In this document: in pieces, positions 2,761 through 45,561 of the stretch | Numbering within the stretch: the stretch's first letter is position 1 | How the letters are laid out: each line of letters begins with the position of its first letter | NCBI GenBank assembly: GCA_045863295.1 | Contig: BTWA01000020.1 | Location: 32,001-96,000, forward strand | Reading direction: 5' to 3' | DNA from: Candidatus Hydrogenedentota bacterium | Lineage (GTDB): Bacteria > Hydrogenedentota > Hydrogenedentia > Hydrogenedentales > SLHB01 | Length of the DNA: 64,000 bases | Position numbers and translations under genes: made by a program | Notes under the pieces: model-generated | Told to the model about the DNA's origin: nothing | What the model saw: only the letters and a program-made list of their open reading frames with translations | Database searches by the model: none

Positions 2761-2959
2761 CCCGCATTTTGCACCACGCTTAAATCATGCGTGGAAGATT
2801 TAAGTACAGTCTCCGTGGCGCAAAATGCTCACACAGAATTCCTTACGCTTGAAATGCTGAGGATATTTCACATGCACACTGTAAGTGCGCCAGTTTTGGT
2901 AACAGGCCGGTTGAATTGTTGGTACACAGTTTATTGGACAAATTCGTGAAATATCCGGG
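2761..2959. mobile_element. MITE-like element, copy 1 (199 bp)
   Basis: Imperfect TIRs CCCGCATTTTGCAC / GTGAAATATCCGGG, flanked by TTAG on both sides (2757-2760 and 2960-2963). Homologous to 18470-18668, 32358-32540 and 35188-35314. Confidence 0.75.
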
Positions 2960-4225
2960 TTAGTTCGTGTCGCTCCGCGTCCGCGCGTTGATCGTCCCCA
3001 TCACAAAACCCAATAGGATCGCCAGCCCGGAAATCTGAATAAAGGGCATAATCTGGCTAAACGCCAAATAGACCAGGGTGACCGCCCCCGTCGAGAACAC
3101 CCGGCTCTTGTACTCCTCATCACGCGCCGATCGATACGCGGACACCCACTGCACGCCAATCGCACTCCACAACCAACCAAAACAAGCGAGACCAAACCAA
3201 CCAAGCTCAATCCAAAAACTGATGGGCACGCTGTGCACGGTCGAGCCAATGGGCTTACCAAGCGGATCCGTCAGGTCCTTCCCTATCGCATGTGCCGTGT
3301 CCAGCCCGTGCCCGAACCAGCCCCCACGGACAGCCTCCTCGCCCGCGCGGGCGTAATGCATTACACGGGAAGCGGTGGATCGATCGCCAGCCTGGGCCCC
3401 CTCATATACCCTGCGCTGCACGGACTCAATAAAATCCGGCTTCATGGCCCACAACCCTAAGGCCCCTGCGGCGCCTATTGCTCCAATTAACAACGCGAAC
3501 GTCATCCGGTGGCGAGTCAGCATCAGCCGCCACAACACAATCACGGCACTTATCGCCCATCCTGTGCGCGACATGGTTAGCGCCAAACCGGCCGCAATGG
3601 CTATCCCCCCAAGAATCGCGGCCGCTTGGCGGATACGCGTGGACCATACAGCGGGTTCAAACAACAGACAGGCAAGACCAAACACCAGGAACAACGCTTG
3701 CTGATTGGCATCAGGATGACCAACGCATATTCGCCGGATGCCCAAGGTCAACGTCGCCATATCGACGGTGGGCCGGACACCCAGTTCGGCGCTGGCCAGC
3801 ACCGCCAACACCCCGCTGAATGCCGCGCCACCAGCGAAAACAGGCGCAAACGCGCGAAGCGCCGGCGGTTCGGAAATCGCCGTTGAGACCGCATAAAACA
3901 AAACCGCATACTGAACAAAAAGCGTCATGCCCCGGATCGACGCATCGCGATCGACGGAACCGGGAATGGACAGCGCGCAAGCCAACGCGAACAGCGCTAA
4001 CGCACCGTCTATGCCGGTCGCTGCAAACGGCGCGCGTTTGCACAAGACGCGCCTCGCCATCACCACCGCAATCAACAGCAGGCCGCCCGCTTTCACAACC
4101 GTGACCGAAGTGCCTGGAACAACAATTGCCGCCTGCGCCGGCAACGAAAACGCCACCAGACACAACAGAAAATACTCGGCCTGCGACAGAAGGACGCGCA
4201 CTGTGCGCAGCACGTTATTCTCCAT
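2960..4225 (-). CDS. O-antigen ligase/polymerase (Wzy) family membrane protein
   Basis: Many TM segments; motifs LTMSRTG, STASR, GHG and TVHSVPISFWIELG typical of Wzy_C. Confidence 0.8.
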   Translation of the reverse strand: MENNVLRTVRVLLSQAEYFLLCLVAFSLPAQAAIVVPGTSVTVVKAGGLLLIAVVMARRVLCKRAPFAATGIDGALALFALACALSIPGSVDRDASIRGMTLFVQYAVLFYAVSTAISEPPALRAFAPVFAGGAAFSGVLAVLASAELGVRPTVDMATLTLGIRRICVGHPDANQQALFLVFGLACLLFEPAVWSTRIRQAAAILGGIAIAAGLALTMSRTGWAISAVIVLWRLMLTRHRMTFALLIGAIGAAGALGLWAMKPDFIESVQRRVYEGAQAGDRSTASRVMHYARAGEEAVRGGWFGHGLDTAHAIGKDLTDPLGKPIGSTVHSVPISFWIELGWFGLACFGWLWSAIGVQWVSAYRSARDEEYKSRVFSTGAVTLVYLAFSQIMPFIQISGLAILLGFVMGTINARTRSDTN

Positions 4226-4234
4226 GGCTGCCTG

Positions 4235-5380
4235 TCATGGCCCGCGCTCGCCGCAATCGTACGCAATGGCCGGCATATCCGATGCAACTCCGGAAGCTTC
4301 GCACACGGTGACAACCCCGTCCATCCGTAACACGGCAAACACATAGGCATTGGGCATTACGGTCTCCGGAGGAATGCGCGAAACGCCCACAATCGATTCA
4401 AGCGCGGCGCGCGCCTCACGGGACATTTCGCCGACCGCGCGCCCAGAAGCCATGCCAAACACAAAAGGATACGGCTGCGTGGCACGCCACCAGGCTTCCA
4501 GCGTTTCCCTTTCGTTGCTCAGCGCCTTCAACGAAATCGTCTCCCGGCATACAATGGCCGGCGAATTCGGATCAACAGCGGCCAGCAACCAGCCATCCGC
4601 CTGTTCCGAAGCGCGCATCGGCCCGAACTGAACGCGATACCGGTTACCCTCGGCGTCGCCGGTCGCGATCAATTTCCAGGACATGCCCAACCCGGGCCGC
4701 CCCGCGGATAGGCCGCATGCCGTCGGGCCAATCAGGCCCACCGCGCGCGCAAGTTGGCCGTCGGAAAGTCCGGCCTCCGCAATTCGGACCGCAGGAATCC
4801 GAAACACATCGGAAAAAAGCTCCGATCCGTCCAGGCAACGAATAGCCGCGCCGTCACCCGGCATCACACGCAACAACGAATAGAATTGGGGCCAATCGTC
4901 CAGGCTCGCTGCAACGCGCGCCGATCGCAACAAGCCCAGTGGAGTGGCCAACGTAGTGGGATTACGTTGAGCAATCTCACCCAAAAGAGTAGTCAATTCG
5001 TCCCGCGTCGGCGGTGGAAGAACGGCAGGGCCGCGCGTCCGTGTTCCCGATGCGGCCCAGATCAAATGCTCAAGTGCGACATCGGGCAGATCCACCTCCA
5101 GGCGGCAACGGCTGATCTGAAAATGCGTCCGCGCATCAAACGGATGGCTGTACAACATTTGCCCGGCCGCCTGGGCCGCCTCCGGCCACTGCCCGGCCTC
5201 CATAAGGGTGTTCACGCGCTCAGCCTGCGCCGCTGTTCCTCGTTGCCCGCCATAGCGAGAAGAGGCCTGATAAAGCACCGTCAGAACAATTGCGGTACAG
5301 ACTGCAAGCCACGCTATCGCCTTCTCTCGAAAACTTGATGGGCGCGTTACCTCGATCCGTTCCGGCGCATGCTCGGTCAT
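4235..5380 (-). CDS. Membrane-anchored hypothetical protein with TPR-like segment
   Basis: ATG overlaps the upstream stop. One N-terminal TM, then AGQWPEAAQAA...PFDARTHFQISRC. Confidence 0.55.
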   Translation of the reverse strand: MTEHAPERIEVTRPSSFREKAIAWLAVCTAIVLTVLYQASSRYGGQRGTAAQAERVNTLMEAGQWPEAAQAAGQMLYSHPFDARTHFQISRCRLEVDLPDVALEHLIWAASGTRTRGPAVLPPPTRDELTTLLGEIAQRNPTTLATPLGLLRSARVAASLDDWPQFYSLLRVMPGDGAAIRCLDGSELFSDVFRIPAVRIAEAGLSDGQLARAVGLIGPTACGLSAGRPGLGMSWKLIATGDAEGNRYRVQFGPMRASEQADGWLLAAVDPNSPAIVCRETISLKALSNERETLEAWWRATQPYPFVFGMASGRAVGEMSREARAALESIVGVSRIPPETVMPNAYVFAVLRMDGVVTVCEASGVASDMPAIAYDCGERGP

Positions 5381-38775: not shown

Positions 38776-38862
38776 GCCGGAGTGGTGGAATTGGCAGACA
38801 CGCATGGCTCAGGACCATGTGGGGGCAACCCTGTGGAGGTTCGAATCCTCTCTCCGGCACCA
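38776..38862 (+). tRNA. tRNA-Leu(CAG)
   Basis: GCCGGAG acceptor stem, D-loop GGAATTGGCAGAC, anticodon arm CATGG-CTCAGGA-CCATG, long variable arm, GGTTCGAATCC, encoded CCA. Confidence 0.95.
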
Positions 38863-39123
38863 CTTATTCCCGACTCCAACCCAAAGTCACCGTTGCATAT
38901 TCGCCGGTCGTTGACCCTAAGATTCCGCCGCCAAGTTTCGAAGTCATGGTTGTACATGGGCTCGCATCCGCGGTCTGTCCCACTTTGAATTCTTTGCAAC
39001 GTGATTGTCGTTCCGGCTTCCATGCGTCTTCGCTCTGTTGGAGCAGGAAAAGACGTTAGCCACCTTAGCCTTCATCCCAGGCCGACTTAGTGCGGACTGT
39101 TATCCCTGAAGAATGGATTACGC

Positions 39124-39162
39124 AAAAGATACGGCCCCGGCAACAACGCGCCGCCGGGGCCG
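39124..39162 (-). terminator. Terminator of the Ro60-Y RNA transcript
   Basis: Hairpin CGGCCCCGGC/GCCGGGGCCG followed on the minus strand by UAUCUUUU. Confidence 0.65.
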
Positions 39163-39171
39163 AAAAGGTTT

Positions 39172-39303
39172 GCCGGATGAATGGTTGGTATGGGCGTTTT
39201 ACCGCTCTACCATCTGAGCTACGATTCAACCGAAGTTGAACGGCCGGACTCGAACCGGCGACCTGTTCGTAATCTAACGATAACCCATCCCATGCGACCC
39301 GGC
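39172..39303 (-). ncRNA. yrlA: Y RNA-like tRNA mimic (YrlA type)
   Basis: 5' GCCGG pairs with 3' CCGGC. Internal order is T-arm GCCGG-UUCGAGU-CCGGC, a UUCG-capped acceptor-like stem, then D-arm UA-GCUC-AGAUGGUA-GAGC. Lies downstream of a Ro60 gene. Confidence 0.85.
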
Positions 39304-39315
39304 AAAAACTCAAAT

Positions 39316-39443
39316 GCGCGGACAAGAGACTGCCAAGGTAGGCGGCCATGCCGAAGCCTGACTGCCTGGGCGGCCAAAAGGCCGCGGGGTTCGAACCCGC
39401 TACGCCCTGTTAATCCAGATAACCCTGTGCAAGCGTCCCGCGC
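39316..39443 (-). ncRNA. Second Y RNA-like RNA (T-arm present, no D-arm)
   Basis: 5' GCGCGGGAC pairs with 3' CUUGUCCGCGC. Shares GGGUUAUC...GAUUA...ACAGG with the adjacent RNA. T-arm GCGGG-UUCGAAC-CCCGC. Confidence 0.7.
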
Positions 39444-39490
39444 AAAATCCGGTTTCGAATGAACCTATCAAACGAACGAGCATGCGTCAA

Positions 39491-41074
39491 TTATACGCGG
39501 CCCGCGGCAAAATCGCTGAGCAGCGCCGGCGCTGCGGTGTCAAACCCCACCACGTCGAGCATGCCGGTATCTTCAGGGTCGGCGATGGTGCATTCCGTCG
39601 CCGTCATTCCCACCACGGCCAGCCGCGCATCAATACCGGTCTCCTGCCGGTATTGCCTCAACGCCACATGAGGATGGACCTGACCGAACCACGTTTCGTT
39701 GTCCGTGTACACCACAAAGGTGTCGACTTCGATATAGTTCCGTCTTGCCCAGACCATGGGCAAGGCACAATCGGTACGGCCGAAAGACCTGTCCTGCGTC
39801 TTCTGCGTAACTGTTTCAAGCGTATCCTGTCTATCGATTCCAAGGTCCCGGAACTCGTCAGCAAAACCCATGCTATGTACACGCGGTTCCGTGCGCACCG
39901 TGGCCAGCGCCATGACCGCGGCGGCCACGTTGGGCGAAAATCCGGGCACACCGGCAATGCTTCCACACGTCATGGATCCACTCACGTCAATTCCCAGAAG
40001 AAATCGCTTGCCCGCGGGTTCCACATTCTGAAACGACAGGTACAGCGCCGCATCGAGTGCGTTACGGATTTCCTGTACCGGTTGCCATACAAGTTTCCCA
40101 CGGAGCCCCTTGCCTGCGCGGTAGGTGTACGAAGCTTTGACAAGATCAATCGGATGCACGCGCGCCTTTCGCAGCGCTTCGACGTTCGTCAACCGTTCGC
40201 TGACCCATCGCGTGTGTTCGCCAAGCGGCTTCAGGAGGTCTTTCGCGCTGAGATTGCCGAGATTCCGCAGCAACGCGCCTATCGGCATGCCCGGCAAAAG
40301 CGCCTCCCAAACGCAGGCATGCGCCAGCAATTCCGGCGGCACCATTTCCCATGTAACTTGGGAACGGTCTCGAATCAACGCGGCGGCCGCCTTCGGCTGA
40401 TGCACCAGCCCCTGCAATTCCAGAAAGACATCGACAATCTCGAGGCGATCAGCCCCTTCCTTCCACACGTCCTTCACGGCAAAATGAAACAGGGCGTCGT
40501 GCGCGAGGCTGCGCGGTTTGGGATGCGAAATACGGATCAGATCCGCGTGCGTGTATCCGTAGCGGTTCCGGTACTTAATTATCTGATGCGCAAGTTCGGT
40601 CGCGCTCTTGCCGTTGTACCACCGCGCAATGCCCGTGCGAAGTCCGCGCCCGTGGCCGCGCATGACCTGCAACTCGCTCATGAACTTCATGAGATGGGAG
40701 GCTGTGCGAGCGACTTGGGGCATGGCCTCCCAGGCGCGGGAGGCGGCTTCGCGTCCGCAACGGCCGCTTGCGCCAACGGCCAACGAAAACAGCAGCGTAT
40801 CCACGCGGGGTGCGCGGCCTTCCTGACTGATCTGCACGATAAGGTCTGCCGTGCGCCGGGCATCCGCGGCAAAACAGTCCTGCAACAACAGGCTGTTGTC
40901 GATAGTCAGCGTGCGCTCGGAGGCGTAATAAGTACCGCCCTCGGTTCCAAGGATCAGGAAGCGGTGCAACCGTGCCCACGGATCGAGTTTGAACACGTAG
41001 CCACCGGCGGAATTCTTCACCTGATCGGCGCGAACCGGCGCCTGTTGATGGGTAGTGTGCTTTGCATAATGCAT
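39491..41074 (-). CDS. rsr: Ro60 orthologue (TROVE + vWA domain RNA-binding protein)
   Basis: QVKNSAGGYVF, RLHRFLILGTEGGTYY, KYRNRYGYTHADLIRISHP, ALLRNLG, ARVHP, vWA DVSGSM, GRTDCALPM, TDNETW, VVGFD. Confidence 0.95.
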   Translation of the reverse strand: MHYAKHTTHQQAPVRADQVKNSAGGYVFKLDPWARLHRFLILGTEGGTYYASERTLTIDNSLLLQDCFAADARRTADLIVQISQEGRAPRVDTLLFSLAVGASGRCGREAASRAWEAMPQVARTASHLMKFMSELQVMRGHGRGLRTGIARWYNGKSATELAHQIIKYRNRYGYTHADLIRISHPKPRSLAHDALFHFAVKDVWKEGADRLEIVDVFLELQGLVHQPKAAAALIRDRSQVTWEMVPPELLAHACVWEALLPGMPIGALLRNLGNLSAKDLLKPLGEHTRWVSERLTNVEALRKARVHPIDLVKASYTYRAGKGLRGKLVWQPVQEIRNALDAALYLSFQNVEPAGKRFLLGIDVSGSMTCGSIAGVPGFSPNVAAAVMALATVRTEPRVHSMGFADEFRDLGIDRQDTLETVTQKTQDRSFGRTDCALPMVWARRNYIEVDTFVVYTDNETWFGQVHPHVALRQYRQETGIDARLAVVGMTATECTIADPEDTGMLDVVGFDTAAPALLSDFAAGRV

Positions 41075-41253
41075 TTCTCGTCTCCGGTATAGTCAGGCAT
41101 ATGCGCATTCACACAGCGATCAGGCATTATTCCGGAACGGCGGTAACTCGGGCAACTGTGCCAACGTCTTTCGAGTCGTGCCCCCGCCCGGGTGCGCTCC
41201 GGCAGGATTTCGGGTAGGATAACGGAAAGGTCAGGCAGTTACAGGAATTACGC

Positions 41254-42669
41254 ATGTTTGAACACGGCGATTTAACCAGCAAAACACTCGGACAATACGA
41301 GGTCGTCGAACGAATTGGACAAGGCGGTATGGGCATTGTCTACCGGGGACGGGATACGGTGCTGGACCGCGATGTCGCGCTGAAAGTGTTGCCGCCTGCC
41401 TTCGCTAAAAATGAACAGTATTTGCAGCGTTTCATGCGGGAAGCAAAATCGGTTGCCCGTCTGGATCACCCGAATATCGTCGCGGTATATGGAGCGGGAG
41501 AGCAGAATGGCGTCTATTTCATTGCCATGCTGTTCGTAAAAGGCGACCTGCTTCAAACCGTCATCGATCGCGTGGGGAGGTTGGATGTCTACCGCGCGTT
41601 GCAGATTACGCGCCAGGCCGCCGAAGCATTGGCGGAGGCTCACCGCAACGATATTGTGCATCGCGATGTGAAGCCTCAGAACATCATGATCAATCAATCC
41701 GGAATGGTGAAGGTCATGGATTTCGGATTGGCCCGGCTTGTGCAAAGCACGAGCGGACTCACGGCAACAGGCGCCATGCTGGGCACGCCGAAGTACATGT
41801 CACCGGAACAGTGCGAAGGGCAGGAGATCGATTGCCGCACGGACATCTATTCGCTGGGCGTAACTTTGTTTGAAATGCTCACGGGACGCCTGCCTTACGA
41901 TGCCGACAGCGATCTTGGCATCATGTATCAAATCGTTCACAAGCCCTTTCCAGAACTGCGATCAATTCGCGGCGATGTGCCCGCGGAGGTTTCCGAGTTA
42001 TTGGAGATGATGGTGGTCAAGGACTCGGCGCAGCGAACCATCACCGCCCAGGAAATCGCGTACCGGTGCGAGTGCATTCTCGCCAACATGACGCCTGTGC
42101 CCCTTGCGGGAAACCCGGCGGACCTGGAAGCGCCGCTGCACCGTGATCTCGCTGATCACCGGCGCCGTCTGAGCGAGCTTGAAACCATCGCCGCGACACC
42201 GACCTTCACCGATTCTGAAGTGGATGAGTTGTCGCGGAGAATGTCCGAACTGAAGCCTTTGGCGGAAGCAACGCCCGCGCCCCCGGTCTCTTACGGGAAC
42301 AAGCCTGCAGGTCCGTGGGGAGAAGCGCGATCGGTGACGCCCGCCGCACCCAGGGCTGCGATGCCCGTCAAGCGGGAAGAGCCCGCGCAGCCGGTCGCAG
42401 CCCGCAGTACCACGCCTTATCCCGCGACTAAGACAAGTCCCTGGGGAGGTTCGCATTCAGTGTCCCAGGTGTCCGCGCCAGCGCCGGACTGGCGAAAACC
42501 CTTTCAGATAGCAATCCGGTTAACAGGTGGGATCGTGAGCCGGATCGTCTTTTGGACGGTCATCCTGGCTTTGCTGTTTCTGGTTTGGGTCGGGTTCGGC
42601 CACGCGGGTCTGTATCCATTGCCGGCGCCGATTGCGCAGTTCCTGGAAGGCACTCCGCGCACCGAATAG
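41254..42669 (+). CDS. Hanks-type Ser/Thr protein kinase with C-terminal TM
   Basis: IGQGGMGIVY, VALK, HRDVKPQN, DFGLA, GTPKYMSPE, DIYSLG. Confidence 0.93.
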   Translation: MFEHGDLTSKTLGQYEVVERIGQGGMGIVYRGRDTVLDRDVALKVLPPAFAKNEQYLQRFMREAKSVARLDHPNIVAVYGAGEQNGVYFIAMLFVKGDLLQTVIDRVGRLDVYRALQITRQAAEALAEAHRNDIVHRDVKPQNIMINQSGMVKVMDFGLARLVQSTSGLTATGAMLGTPKYMSPEQCEGQEIDCRTDIYSLGVTLFEMLTGRLPYDADSDLGIMYQIVHKPFPELRSIRGDVPAEVSELLEMMVVKDSAQRTITAQEIAYRCECILANMTPVPLAGNPADLEAPLHRDLADHRRRLSELETIAATPTFTDSEVDELSRRMSELKPLAEATPAPPVSYGNKPAGPWGEARSVTPAAPRAAMPVKREEPAQPVAARSTTPYPATKTSPWGGSHSVSQVSAPAPDWRKPFQIAIRLTGGIVSRIVFWTVILALLFLVWVGFGHAGLYPLPAPIAQFLEGTPRTE

Positions 42670-42694: not shown

Positions 42695-44107
42695 TCAGCG
42701 GTATTGCCGGCCGTCGTGGGCTTCAGGTTCGATTTGTGCCGGTGGATTGACGTGTTCGCGCTCCATGAACGCTTTCAAGTCCGCGACAACGTCCGGGTGT
42801 TTTGAAGCGACATCCGTGGTTTCGCTCCCATCTTCCGCGAGATTATACAACTCTACCGGCCTGTCTTTTCCGGGCCACACCGCTTTCCAGTCGCCCTTGC
42901 GCGCCGCCCGCGGCAATGCCTCGCCCCACAGTTCCCAATACAAATAAGGCTGATACGGAATGGGTACGCCCGCGGTTGGATTCGTCATTGCGGCGTAAAA
43001 AGAGACGCCATCGATTCCCTCAGGGATGCGATCGGCACACTCTGCCGCGTCCGCGAATGTGGGAAAGATATCGGGAAAATACCAGACTTGATTGCTCTCT
43101 GATTGAGGAGACACGCGTGCGGGCCAACGGACGATAGCAGGCACTCGGATGCCACCCTCATACAAATCGCCTTTGTATCCTCGCAACGTTCCGTTGGCTT
43201 TGAAAAACTCGGGACTGGGTATGGAATAGGAATCAGCGCCGTTATCGGAGGTGAAGAGCACGAGCGTGTTTTCGCGAAGGCCTAGCTCGTCCAACTGCTT
43301 CAGCACGTCGCCAATGGTCTTGTCCATGTAAGAAATCATTGCGGCGAGTGTCGCCTTAGGCTCCTCAGGATGAGCGTATCCTTCACGCCAGCGGAATTCG
43401 GGCGGAGTCTCCTCGAACTTGCCCGAGTATTGTTTCAGCGCTTCCGCGGGCGCGGTCCATTCGTGATGGGGAATGGTATACGACAGAAAGCAGAAGAACG
43501 GCGCTTGCCGATTCTCCTGGATGAACGCCTTGGCTCTTTCCGTAATAACGTCGTGAGTGTACTGCTCGCGCTTGTTGCCCTGGTTGCCCGGCAGCGCAAA
43601 GCGTTCGTCGTTGTGCCAGAGATAATCCGTGTACGAAAAATGGGCGTGTTTTTGGTGAAGGTACCCAAAGAACTCGTCGAAGCCCTTCTTGTTGGGCACG
43701 CCCGCAGTATCCGCGTCGCCGAGCCCCCATTTACCGAACAGGCCGGTCCGGTAGCCGGCGCCTTGCAGGAGTTGCGCGAAGGTGACATCGCCTTCCTGTA
43801 GCGAGACGCCGCCGGTATTGCCGCGCACGGAGGTGTGGCCCGTATGGGTGCCCGTCATCAGCGCACTGCGCGAGGGCGCGCACAACGCACATCCAGCGTA
43901 GGCCTGGGTGAATCGCATACCGTCACGCGCCAGTTGATCAAGATTCGGGGTCTGAATTATCTCCTGGCCGTAACAACCAAGATGACCGTAGCCGAGATCG
44001 TCGGCCATGATGAGAAGGATGTTGGGACGCTCCGATTGTGCGTTCGCAGGGGTTAATCCCGCCGCGGCCGCCGCGGCCGCGCTCGCAAGAAATGTGCGCC
44101 GGTTCAT
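42695..44107 (-). CDS. Arylsulfatase (Tat-exported)
   Basis: MNRRTFL Tat signal, PNILLIMADDLG, CAPSRSALMTG, GKWGLG, SDNG. Confidence 0.92.
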   Translation of the reverse strand: MNRRTFLASAAAAAAAGLTPANAQSERPNILLIMADDLGYGHLGCYGQEIIQTPNLDQLARDGMRFTQAYAGCALCAPSRSALMTGTHTGHTSVRGNTGGVSLQEGDVTFAQLLQGAGYRTGLFGKWGLGDADTAGVPNKKGFDEFFGYLHQKHAHFSYTDYLWHNDERFALPGNQGNKREQYTHDVITERAKAFIQENRQAPFFCFLSYTIPHHEWTAPAEALKQYSGKFEETPPEFRWREGYAHPEEPKATLAAMISYMDKTIGDVLKQLDELGLRENTLVLFTSDNGADSYSIPSPEFFKANGTLRGYKGDLYEGGIRVPAIVRWPARVSPQSESNQVWYFPDIFPTFADAAECADRIPEGIDGVSFYAAMTNPTAGVPIPYQPYLYWELWGEALPRAARKGDWKAVWPGKDRPVELYNLAEDGSETTDVASKHPDVVADLKAFMEREHVNPPAQIEPEAHDGRQYR

Positions 44108-45561
44108 GGCTGCTCCCCGGTTGCGGTATCGTTTGGCAGGGATTCCAACAGTTCCAGAACGGTTGCCAGAATCGTGTCGGCGGCGTCCACTTCAAGGTAG
44201 CTGGATCGCGCGCGCCAGGTCTCATAGCCGCCATACCCGTGTTGTTCTTTCGTGGGAAGGTAACCGTTGTAACCGTTCGCAAGCGAGATGGTGAATACAT
44301 CGTCGAATGGACTCTTCTCCTTGATGGCAAGTCCAATTTCCACGAACACCTCGCAGGGAATGGCAGCGATACTGAGATCGCCAATCCGCATGCACTGAAG
44401 TATCAGTTTCTTCGTGGCGGGGTATTCGCTCAGAAAAACCGTCTCGCGCGCGTAGATCTCCGTGAGCCCCTTCATATCGGGTCCGGCCGCCTTTGCTACA
44501 ATCTCTTTGGCCTGGGCCACCTCGTCCACGCTTGGGAGGCGCACACCCACCTCAATCTCTTGGTGCAAAGCCGCCAGCGGAACCCACTCCTGAAACCGGA
44601 CAGATTGATAGGCTTTGTAGACTTCGCCCGCCACCTTGTTGGCCACGCGCGTCATTTGCTCGTAGGGTTGTTGCTGCCAGGGCGCCACTCGGAAGTTGAT
44701 GTTATTGATGTTGCCGCTCGTGCCGTTGGACATCATGCCGACAAAAGGCTTGTCTTGTCCGCCCGCATTCAGCAGTTCTCCCATGCGCCGGGCGAAGATG
44801 CCGAAGTAGTCCGCGGAGATTTCATCCGGGCCCGTGCCGCCGACATAATGCAACGAGTAGTTCGCCAACAGCGCGATCGGCTTGCCCTCAAGAGACTGTA
44901 CCGCGACAAAGGACACCTCCGGATCGATGGGACCCGCCGGCTCCACGAGATCCTCGCTCGCGCGCGGCGGGTTCATCTGCACCGTCTCGCCTTCCTTGCC
45001 AAACGGGTTCGGACCTATGGTGCCGGGCTTCTTGAACCAGCGGCGGTTGAAGACCTCGTCCGGCACGGAACCAGCGCCCCATCCAATTCGAGCCGGTTGC
45101 AGGTTGGTATTGGCCCTGCGGATTCCGTCGCTGATTTTTACAGTGAGATAACGCTGGTATTCGGGATCCGGGTCGCTTTGAAATACCGGGGTGGCGCAGG
45201 CGGCCGTATGGGTATGCGTCGCCGCCACAAGCATGTTAGACGCCGGTATTCCGGTGCCTTCGCTCGCCATGGCCTTGGCCGCGTCGGTAATCTCCCGGGG
45301 TACCATGCAACTGTCGACCATAACAAAGGCGAGTTTGGTCGTCCCGTCATCTAGCACGATCGCGCGGGCATACAGTTCGTCGTGGACGTGCATGGCCGGG
45401 CGGTCGTTCATGTTGCCCGCGATAGACACGCCAAGCCACGGCGTGATATTGCTCGCCGCCGCGCCCGCGCGGAAGACTTTCGTCGGCGGATCCTGCGCGC
45501 ACACCTGAATTGCATGAATCAGTAGAAACAACCCAGCTGCGTATCGAATCCACTTGCCCAT
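44104..45561 (-). CDS. Secreted neutral/alkaline ceramidase-like hydrolase
   Basis: Signal peptide, HDELYARA, ATHTHTA, FNRR, GPIDPEV, NYSLHY, NGYNGYLP...GGYE. Confidence 0.75.
   Translation of the reverse strand: MGKWIRYAAGLFLLIHAIQVCAQDPPTKVFRAGAAASNITPWLGVSIAGNMNDRPAMHVHDELYARAIVLDDGTTKLAFVMVDSCMVPREITDAAKAMASEGTGIPASNMLVAATHTHTAACATPVFQSDPDPEYQRYLTVKISDGIRRANTNLQPARIGWGAGSVPDEVFNRRWFKKPGTIGPNPFGKEGETVQMNPPRASEDLVEPAGPIDPEVSFVAVQSLEGKPIALLANYSLHYVGGTGPDEISADYFGIFARRMGELLNAGGQDKPFVGMMSNGTSGNINNINFRVAPWQQQPYEQMTRVANKVAGEVYKAYQSVRFQEWVPLAALHQEIEVGVRLPSVDEVAQAKEIVAKAAGPDMKGLTEIYARETVFLSEYPATKKLILQCMRIGDLSIAAIPCEVFVEIGLAIKEKSPFDDVFTISLANGYNGYLPTKEQHGYGGYETWRARSSYLEVDAADTILATVLELLESLPNDTATGEQP

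Follow-up and report, generated by a model that had tools for sequence, protein, structure and literature searches.

A Probable Second Y RNA with a T-Arm and without a D-Arm beside the Ro60 Gene of a Candidatus Hydrogenedentota Bacterium

Y RNAs Known to Accompany Ro60

At least two Y RNAs were found in each of the three bacteria studied by Chen et al. (2014, RNA 20:1715; PMC4201824), and it was proposed there that the extra Y RNAs allow Ro60 to join other components. The subject of the present work is a putative RNA gene of this kind in a stretch of 64,000 nucleotides (nt) from a Candidatus Hydrogenedentota bacterium (contig BTWA01000020.1; the whole stretch is called the window below). It lies between the Ro60 (Rsr) gene and a YrlA-type RNA, and it probably encodes a second Y RNA which has a T-arm and lacks a D-arm.

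Among the bacterial Y RNAs described so far, the YrlA module is composed of four stem-loops, designated V, T, AS and D (PMC4201824). In M. smegmatis, a second RNA called YrlB is bound by Rsr, is located between YrlA and rsr (within 1259411 to 1259580 of CP000480.1), arises from a common precursor and has a possible T-arm; it was grouped with hairpins having a small pyrimidine-rich loop (PMC4201824). The probe published for it, taken as its reverse complement, reads UAUCUGG-CGAC-UUCAAGG-UUCGACU, that is, it contains the 5′ half of a T-arm with the loop UUCGACU. In D. radiodurans, Yrn1 carries a T stem-loop, which is one of the three stem-loops of its effector domain, and a full tRNA-like set is not formed there (bioRxiv 10.1101/312249; PMC4201824); Chen et al. 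(2014) obtained no orthologues of Yrn1 with BLAST. In S. Typhimurium, the operon has the order rsr-yrlBA-rtcBA (PMC7790460). As for animals, UUAUC is conserved in nematode stem-bulge RNAs and vertebrate Y RNAs, where it stands at the start of the loop domain (PMC4726728), and Chen et al. (2014, PMC4201824) know of no T-arm in metazoan Y RNAs or stem-bulge RNAs. A literature search found no systematic description of a class of Y RNAs without a D-arm.

Membership of the Candidate in the Ro60-Linked Y RNA Family

The argument turns on the following features of the window:

41074..39491, minus strand: Ro60 (Rsr) gene, 527 amino acids (Pfam vWA_Ro60 3.4e-63, TROVE 8e-33)
39315..39444, minus strand: whole candidate Y RNA, about 128-132 nt (matches of the models R3 and R2 and of the descriptor, all described below)
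39304..39168 (Rfam match; as a whole element 39169..39306), minus strand: YrlA-type neighbour RNA with variable-arm-like hairpin, T-arm, acceptor-like hairpin of 7 base pairs (bp) and D-arm
39162..39122, minus strand: terminator-like hairpin of 14 pairs with U-rich tail, the single one, 3′ of both RNAs

The candidate, delimited as 39443..39316 in the initial annotation and lengthened by 1-2 nt per side in the covariance models, begins 47 nt past the stop codon of Ro60 on the same (minus) strand, and 11 nt separate it from the YrlA-like neighbour. It is concluded, with a probability of roughly 0.7, that this element encodes a second Y RNA associated with Ro60, one which bears a T-arm and has no D-arm. 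The initial annotation had put forward a second Y-type RNA beside the YrlA-like RNA downstream of Ro60, differing from it in the effector domain, and this view is supported: the candidate retains the T-arm, has no D-arm, has an acceptor-like hairpin of 4 bp and carries an additional hairpin.

The protein collection holds 7851 homologues of Ro60, and the comparison set was composed of 80 Ro60 loci, one genome per species, in which Ro60 is 41-50% identical to that of the window; the window's own genome is absent from the set. From the Ro60 loci of these other genomes, 12 D-arm-less Y-like RNAs with a T-arm were aligned (alignment A4), and the covariance model R3 was derived from them. A4 includes the RNAs of L018 and L008 (the L numbers are our labels for the loci), whose T-loops, of 8 nt each, do not fall into register; a realignment of 10 sequences minus these two (A5) was poorer than A4 and was dropped. 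At E<=1, R3 gave 144 matches in the 80 loci and the window, and all 144 are on the Ro60 strand. At E<=10, it found three matches in total in the 64-kb window: the candidate, which is matched in full length at 39445..39314 with 35.9 bits (E 2.8e-5), the neighbour with 28.2 bits (E 1.1e-3) and the T-arm of a tRNA-Leu gene with 11.2 bits (E 3). Since a model built from other genomes picks the candidate first in the window, the candidate is judged from its sequence to be a genuine member of the Ro60-linked Y RNA family.

Two further covariance models were used. R2, derived from 48 Y-like RNAs of the plain-hairpin type in other loci, was run over 8 kb with filters off; in its ranking the neighbour came first (22.8 bits, E 7e-4), the candidate, placed at 39444..39315, came second (12.6 bits), and the next match had 7.8 bits. 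With default filters on the entire window, R2 reported the neighbour alone and missed the candidate. R1, the model of the candidate alone, gave its best matches on YrlA-type RNAs beside other Ro60 genes (39.7 bits, E 6e-7, in L018; 34.6 bits in L061) and 20.4 bits on the candidate's own neighbour; at E<=10, 51 of its 56 matches are on the Ro60 strand. In addition, a descriptor consisting of GGNCG, a UUAUC-like word 9-30 nt further on and a closing 3′ strand yielded 127 modules in 49 loci and the window, and the candidate is among those matched. In the loci, GTTATC was counted 240 times on the Ro60 strand versus 62 times on the opposite strand, and CTTGTCC is among the commonest 3′ motifs of the 127 modules.

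The initial annotation had called for a covariation check near Ro60 homologues and for a comparison with known Y RNA models. The Ro helix does covary: in alignment A3, which consists of plain Y-like RNAs, it is 95.9% paired, a value as high as this was found in none of 500 shuffles, and the paired fraction is 38-48% when the partners are slid; the outer pairs of the helix in A3 are required by the descriptor and the inner pairs are not. At the N position of GGNCG, the 127 modules have C-G in 86 cases and U-A in 29. UUAUC is invariant in both A3 and A4. In alignment A6, composed of 110 R3 matches, the structure is 91.0% paired and the T-arm 95.6%, figures which lean toward the structure because A6 was fitted to the R3 model. 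In the comparison with known models, no strong full-length match was obtained: when the region was scanned with Rfam 15, no family matched the candidate at E<=10, including RF02553 (YrlA), whose gathering score of 69 is thus not reached, and RF01656 (nematode stem-bulge RNA).

Predicted Fold of the Candidate RNA

From the 5′ end to the 3′ end, the parts of the candidate are as follows, where MFE denotes the minimum free energy structure:

39434..39443, minus strand: 5′ side of the Ro60-binding helix, with GCGCGGGACG, a GNCGAA-type variant in which a C (39435) is bulged and which matches the 5′ module of the family
39422..39433, minus strand: 5′ side of the second or upper stem, with GGG(U) at its end (MFE; pair probability 0.84-0.99)
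39415..39422, minus strand: UUAUC followed directly by UGG (from the sequence; motif string GGGUUAUC at 39425..39418)
39401..39414, minus strand: linker AUUAACAGGGCGUA, 14 nt, able to form a weak hairpin of 3-4 bp or to provide GGGC for a three-way closure
39384..39400, minus strand: T-arm with 5-bp stem and loop UUCGAAC, aligning to the T-arm columns of R3
39372..39383, minus strand: GGCC-UUUU-GGCC hairpin of 4 bp, abutting the T-arm, at the position of the YrlA acceptor-like stem-loop ('AS' of Chen et al. 2014)
39368..39371, minus strand: GCCC, able to pair with GGGC (39407..39404) and so to close off the T-arm and the small hairpin (MFE)
39340..39367, minus strand: irregular hairpin of 10 bp with UUCG loop, sitting where YrlA carries its D-arm
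39329..39339, minus strand: 3′ strand of the second stem, ACCUUGGCAGU (MFE; pair probabilities)
39316..39327, minus strand: 3′ strand of the Ro60-binding helix, UCUUGUCCGCGC, with the family motif CUUGUCC (from the sequence and cross-genome covariation)

The MFE structure of the candidate has an energy of -58.3 kcal/mol, and every helix listed in the initial annotation is included in it. The Ro-type terminal helix is present, with GCGCGGGAC on the 5′ side and CUUGUCCGCGC on the 3′ side, plus GGGUUAUCUGGAUUAACAGG (minus strand, 39443..39316); this outer helix consists of seven pairs, whose probabilities are mostly 0.97-0.99, with 0.66 for the innermost pair. In its 5′ Ro strand GACGCUUG, GNCG is retained and CU stands instead of AA, at positions of the 5′ GNCGAA(N)G motif which vary widely across the loci, and the 3′ CUUGUCC agrees with the canonical CUUG(U/C)CC. 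The second stem is made of CAGGGU/ACCUUG plus GC and GCU pairs. The T-arm GCGGG-UUCGAAC-CCCGC was located at 39400..39384, the acceptor-like stem is indeed cut down to GGCC-UUUU-GGCC at 39383..39372 with pair probabilities of 0.97-1.0, and the extra hairpin capped by GC-UUCG-GC occupies 39367..39340 with pair probabilities of 0.97-0.99. A closure of the two hairpins by GGGC and GCCC, as had been suggested, is possible and appears in the MFE structure; no comparative support for this closure was found. An alternative pairing of GGG (19-21) with CCC (74-76) was rejected, as it costs 6.8 kcal/mol and has a probability of 0.0.

The absence of a recognisable D-arm, which had also been stated at the outset, holds good: inside the candidate, none was found by the heuristic D-arm finder, nor by eye. 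In terms of the YrlA module, T is retained in the candidate, a hairpin of 4 bp stands at AS, the D position is occupied by an unrelated UUCG hairpin of ten pairs, and the V position contains at best a weak remnant of 3-4 bp.

Relation to the Neighbouring YrlA-Type RNA

The neighbour is a complete YrlA-type RNA according to the V/T/AS/D scheme of Chen et al. (2014), and it matches the Rfam model RF02553 with 32.3 bits (E 4.4e-5), under the gathering score of 69. The initial annotation had noticed a signature shared by the candidate and this neighbour and had concluded that the two look paralogous. The similarity itself is real, for 44 of 56 aligned columns are identical in the first 60 nt; it is not special to the pair. 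When 114 Y-like 5′ halves bearing a T-arm, from the 80 loci and the window, were ranked by their similarity to the 5′ half of the candidate, the neighbour was placed 19th, and an RNA of L050 (Longimicrobiaceae) is closer (47/63). In linker similarity, the neighbour is 2nd of 86, level with unrelated loci. Moreover, GGGUUAUC also occurs in cyanobacterial rows of the published YrlA alignment (supplement of PMC4201824). Since UUAUC is a pan-Y-RNA motif and the neighbour ranks merely 19th of 114, the signature is not private to the pair, and since the signature is family-wide, the argument for a paralogous pair is weak. The argument for a specific paralogy of the two RNAs was rejected on account of both ranks.

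The differences between the two RNAs preserve pairing. Three pairs of the outer stem differ from those of the neighbour on both sides and all of them still pair, and at one position of the T-stem G-C is exchanged for C-G between the two RNAs. These differences argue, at the sequence level, against decay of the candidate.

Comparison with Known Y RNA Systems

In motif order, M. smegmatis YrlB appears to be the closest match of the candidate, as judged on its 25-nt probe: over the 25 nt compared, the motifs follow one another as in the candidate and in the R3 class. There are differences as well, in that the UGG of YrlB is about 4 nt from the T-stem and that of the candidate 14 nt, and in that YrlB is encoded upstream of Ro60 and the candidate downstream of it. 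With YrlA (RF02553), the candidate shares the linkage to Ro60, the 5′ module, the T-arm and a hairpin right after the T-arm, whereas the acceptor-like stem of YrlA has 7 bp and that of the candidate 4 bp. As the candidate is without a D-arm, the elbow of T-loop and D-loop, on which the tRNA mimicry of YrlA is founded, cannot form in the usual way. D. radiodurans Yrn1, which tethers Ro60 to PNPase, resembles the candidate, by its published description, in having a T stem-loop without a full tRNA-like set; binding of PNPase by the candidate RNA would be pure conjecture.

In gene order, S. Typhimurium is the nearest case, because the same succession of Ro60, second Y RNA and YrlA is seen there as in the window, and Salmonella yrlB may be regarded, by analogy, as the positional counterpart of the candidate. 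However, the Salmonella operon runs on into rtcBA, whereas in the window no Pfam match to the RtcB or RtcA families was found among the nine open reading frames (ORFs) scanned around Ro60.

Metazoan Y RNAs and nematode stem-bulge RNAs share with the candidate the Ro60 site in the lower stem and UUAUC. In four of eight scanned loci, the nematode stem-bulge model RF01656 (gathering score 38) matched bacterial Y-like RNAs beside Ro60, namely L040 2844-2937, L028 2511-2624, L018 1839-1910 and L052 1756-1825, with scores of 38.4, 37.9, 33.3 and 33.3 bits. These matches constitute a cross-kingdom link at the sequence level, which runs through the Ro stem and UUAUC.

Weighing of the Explanations

To judge from its sequence and its matches, the most likely reading of the candidate is a functional second Y RNA which is YrlB-like, has a T-arm only and bears an effector variant of its own. 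A number of results weigh against this reading. The relatives are distant, for the nearest other Ro60 is 54% identical and that of the best comparison locus 50%. R1 found no full-length relative in the 80 loci, its top matches being YrlA-type RNAs forced into the model, and for the layout of small hairpin plus UUCG hairpin it found no counterpart among them. The E-value of the candidate under R2 is no better than 0.12 (8 kb, filters off), and its R3 score is under those of all 12 training rows (50-81 bits), at rank 33 of 144. At the covarying N position of the Ro helix (39436), A faces G in the candidate; A-G occurs in 3 of the 127 modules, and the other two look like false positives (coding or over-long stretches). 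The fold energy is only slightly more favourable than expected by chance (z -1.95; it is equalled by 5 of 200 shuffles), the pair probability is about 0.6 for the T-arm and 0.5-0.6 for GGGC/GCCC, and the counts of promoter-like and terminator-like sites in the region are not above those of shuffles.

Owing to the A-G non-pair and the lack of a full-length relative in the 80 loci, the candidate could be a drifting duplicate, that is to say, a decaying copy of a YrlA-type gene from which the D-arm and the variable-arm hairpin have disappeared and whose RNA, neither bound nor needed any more, travels along in the Ro60 transcript. The missing D-arm and the weak z-score would agree with such a history, and GCCCAGGCAG, past the small hairpin, is faintly like the 5′ half of the neighbour's D-arm in a pairwise alignment. 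However, all five helices of the candidate are intact, its differences from the neighbour in the outer stem and the T-stem are compensatory rather than disruptive, and it outscores the neighbour on R3, a model of D-arm-less Y RNAs from other genomes. Moreover, D-arm-less Y RNAs with a T-arm recur in many loci, one of them is bound by Rsr in M. smegmatis (PMC4201824), and the pair in question is likewise absent from 3 of the 47 plain Y-like RNAs of A3. Decay is therefore considered unlikely. A tandem arrangement, in which a single transcript or a structured 3′ untranslated region of the Ro60 mRNA carries two Ro60 sites, would suit the gap of 11 nt and the one terminator-like hairpin after both elements; nested Y modules are known from L002 781-930, L008 2339-2474 and L077 2645-2862, and published bacterial Y RNAs arise as polycistronic precursors (PMC4201824). 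Those precursors, however, are processed into separate RNAs according to the same source, and each of the two elements in the window closes on a terminal helix of its own, so that this arrangement seems quite improbable.

It has also to be asked whether the element has nothing to do with Ro60 and is a T-arm-like hairpin formed by chance or a remnant of a tRNA, or whether it belongs to a small gene that codes for a protein. Two ORFs overlap it, of 93 amino acids (39181..39462, plus strand) and 94 amino acids (39065..39349, minus strand), and T-arm-like hairpins are common near tRNA genes; but four overlapping or nearby ORFs have no Pfam match at E<=1, and neither ARAGORN nor Rfam calls a tRNA here, the tRNA-Leu at 38776..38862 being their sole find. 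In addition, the candidate is matched in full length by two models of the Ro60-linked RNAs of other genomes, with ends exactly at the terminal helix. This explanation was already disfavoured and is scarcely credible.

If the candidate is a second Y RNA, as preferred here, it would be transcribed together with Ro60 and the YrlA-type RNA as one precursor, which would end at the hairpin 39162..39132, and it would then be cut out of this precursor. Ro60 would bind the terminal helix, in which the 5′ strand GGGACG, with its bulged C, faces the 3′ strand CUUGUCC. UUAUC, the pan-Y-RNA motif, ends the second stem, which would open into the effector module, where the T-arm is predicted to be stacked on the 4-bp hairpin and the extra UUCG hairpin to take the place of the D-arm of YrlA. 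The UGG after UUAUC may supply the T-loop with the two guanines that normally come from the D-loop, giving a reduced tRNA 'elbow', and the RNA would in the end link Ro60 to a partner or control the access to Ro60.

The UGG Motif and the Missing D-Arm

A working class was set up for RNAs in which UGG comes right after UUAUC, a T-arm is present and the stretch up to the 3′ Ro strand contains no D-arm. M. smegmatis YrlB fits this class as far as its probe goes, and L015 2864-2955 is a short member of it. R3 gave 110 matches at E<=0.1, of which 59 have a paired T-arm, 20 of them with UGG and 39 without it. A D-arm is present in none of the 20 with UGG versus 28 of the 39 without UGG (p 3e-8). When the training rows are left out, it is present in none of 9 UGG-bearing rows (p 1e-4), and when the window is left out too, in none of 8 (p 2.4e-4). 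The candidate has UGG after UUAUC and a T-arm, lacks a D-arm, and is one of the 20; besides the window, D-arm-less RNAs with UUAUC-UGG and T-arm amount to 19 matches in 18 loci. The candidate new Y RNA subclass of the initial annotation is not supported in that form, since second Y RNAs and a T-arm in M. smegmatis YrlB had been published (PMC4201824) and D-arm-less forms recur in 18 other loci. What is new, among the 80 loci, is the exact effector layout of the candidate; second Y RNAs and the idea that further partners are recruited by them are already found in the literature cited above.

Two guanines of the D-loop hold the T-loop in the crystal structure of YrlA (6cu1; Wang et al. 2018, bioRxiv 10.1101/312249), and this makes a UGG beside the T-arm a plausible stand-in for them. 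On this basis, it may be proposed tentatively, and we hold it to be rather doubtful, that the candidate is a divergent member of a widespread and so far undescribed class of bacterial Y RNAs, in which a single-stranded UGG replaces the whole D-arm and docks on the T-loop to give a minimal tRNA elbow, carried by the stem that binds Ro60. If this is correct, the RNA of the window adds the UUCG hairpin at the D-arm position and thereby has an effector architecture of its own.

Several points tell against the proposal. The test depends on a heuristic D-arm finder and on R3, for the training of which UGG-bearing RNAs were used; earlier and cruder tests with boundaries set by regular expressions or by the descriptor gave p values of 0.08, 0.16 and 0.22. 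Because a fixed 200-nt search had caught D-arms of the next downstream gene (for example, that of the neighbour in the window), the test was rerun with model-defined ends. In the candidate, UGG is 14 nt from the T-stem compared with the usual 4-9 nt, and the possible small hairpin in the linker would take up one of the UGG guanines. From UUAUC to the T-arm, the linker of the candidate measures 17 nt versus 7-9 nt in most UGG-bearing relatives; of 9 UGG-bearing modules, counting that of the window, the linker after UUAUC does not exceed 12 nt in 6. Should the proposal be true, RNAs of the YrlA type and of the UGG type would present an identical elbow, built in two different ways, to one common partner, or would compete for this partner, and the two types would not recruit different ones.

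Gene Surroundings of Ro60 in the Window

The following features surround the Ro60 gene and the two RNAs:

41155..41126, minus strand: sigma-70-like site just upstream of Ro60, the sole one in the region and a weak lead
38776..38862, plus strand: tRNA-Leu (ARAGORN, Rfam tRNA model)
41254..42669, plus strand; 42695..44107, minus strand; 44104..45561, minus strand: genes flanking Ro60, for a Ser/Thr protein kinase, a TAT-signal sulfatase and a ceramidase-like protein

One sigma-70-like site was found in the region and 0.9 are expected from shuffles; as the site counts are no higher than in shuffled sequence, the picture of an operon is drawn from the spacing of the genes. Elsewhere in the window, a dihydroorotase shows 72-76% identity with proteins from planctomycete MAGs, under the names Pirellulaceae, Planctomycetaceae and Schlesneria, and by this protein the genome resembles that of a planctomycete.

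Other Y-Like RNAs in the Ro60 Loci

In the 80 loci, the Y-like RNAs form families, all of which have the UUAUC motif known from animal Y RNAs. At E<=0.01, R3 detected two or more Y-like RNAs in 15 of the 80 loci and in the window (counted by hand). Tandem arrays of mixed Y-like RNAs were seen, with 8 matches in L051 and 5 each in L046 and L018.

Besides simple arrays, composite forms occur. In L002, L008 and L077, at the coordinates given above, as well as in L024, L029 and L039 (2496-2773), some YrlA-type RNAs have a complete second hairpin with Ro stem and UUAUC nested within them, which lies between the T-arm and the D-arm in place of the acceptor-like hairpin, so that, by sequence, each RNA would possess two Ro60-binding modules. 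At L007 (about 4720-4800), L004 (about 4890-4960), L005 (about 2945-3010) and L040 (about 2490-2560), a Ro module with GGUUA(U/C)C is followed by the stretch GUAACUAUAACGG.CCUAAGGUAGCGA. This stretch may resemble a conserved segment of 23S rRNA, and it would then be an effector module of the rRNA type instead of the tRNA type; an Rfam scan of these modules gave no large-subunit rRNA match at E<=0.01. At L027 2197-2315, a Y-type 5′ module (GGGCUGAAG...GGUUAUC) runs directly into a part which resembles the 3′ three-quarters of a tRNA, consisting of UGGUAGAGC, an anticodon-arm-like hairpin, a T-arm and ...CCACCA, and the whole looks like a chimera of Y RNA and tRNA.

Many Ro60 genes of the clade (for example, those of L004, L007, L010, L020 and L078) lie inside long tRNA arrays on the same strand; in the 80 loci, none of which is longer than 7.7 kb, ARAGORN called 447 tRNA genes, and almost all of these share the strand of Ro60. 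The Ro60 gene of the window is not within a tRNA array. A full-text search of the literature for the combination of tRNA arrays with Ro60 returned no paper. The Rfam tRNA model also gave matches of 110-150 nt above its gathering score, at L052 2492-2642, L040 2207-2332, 2370-2477 and 2697-2832, L007 6994-7117 and L015 2730-2849, which are apparently YrlA-type or tandem elements that the model interprets as a tRNA containing a long insertion; artefacts from such misreading as tRNA had been warned of by Chen et al. (2014, PMC4201824). In the scans run, current Rfam models barely detected the Y-like RNAs, with 32-44 bits against a gathering score of 69.

Significance for the Ro60-Linked Y RNAs

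The candidate would be one more case of a rule, according to which bacterial Ro60 genes are accompanied by several Y RNAs that differ in their effector modules, and would extend this rule to a genome of Planctomycetota-like character; the wider survey of the loci may matter more than the candidate itself. A curated model of these classes would bring Y RNA annotation to thousands of genomes, and a UGG in place of the D-loop offers a concrete structural hypothesis for the Y RNAs that carry a T-arm and no D-arm.

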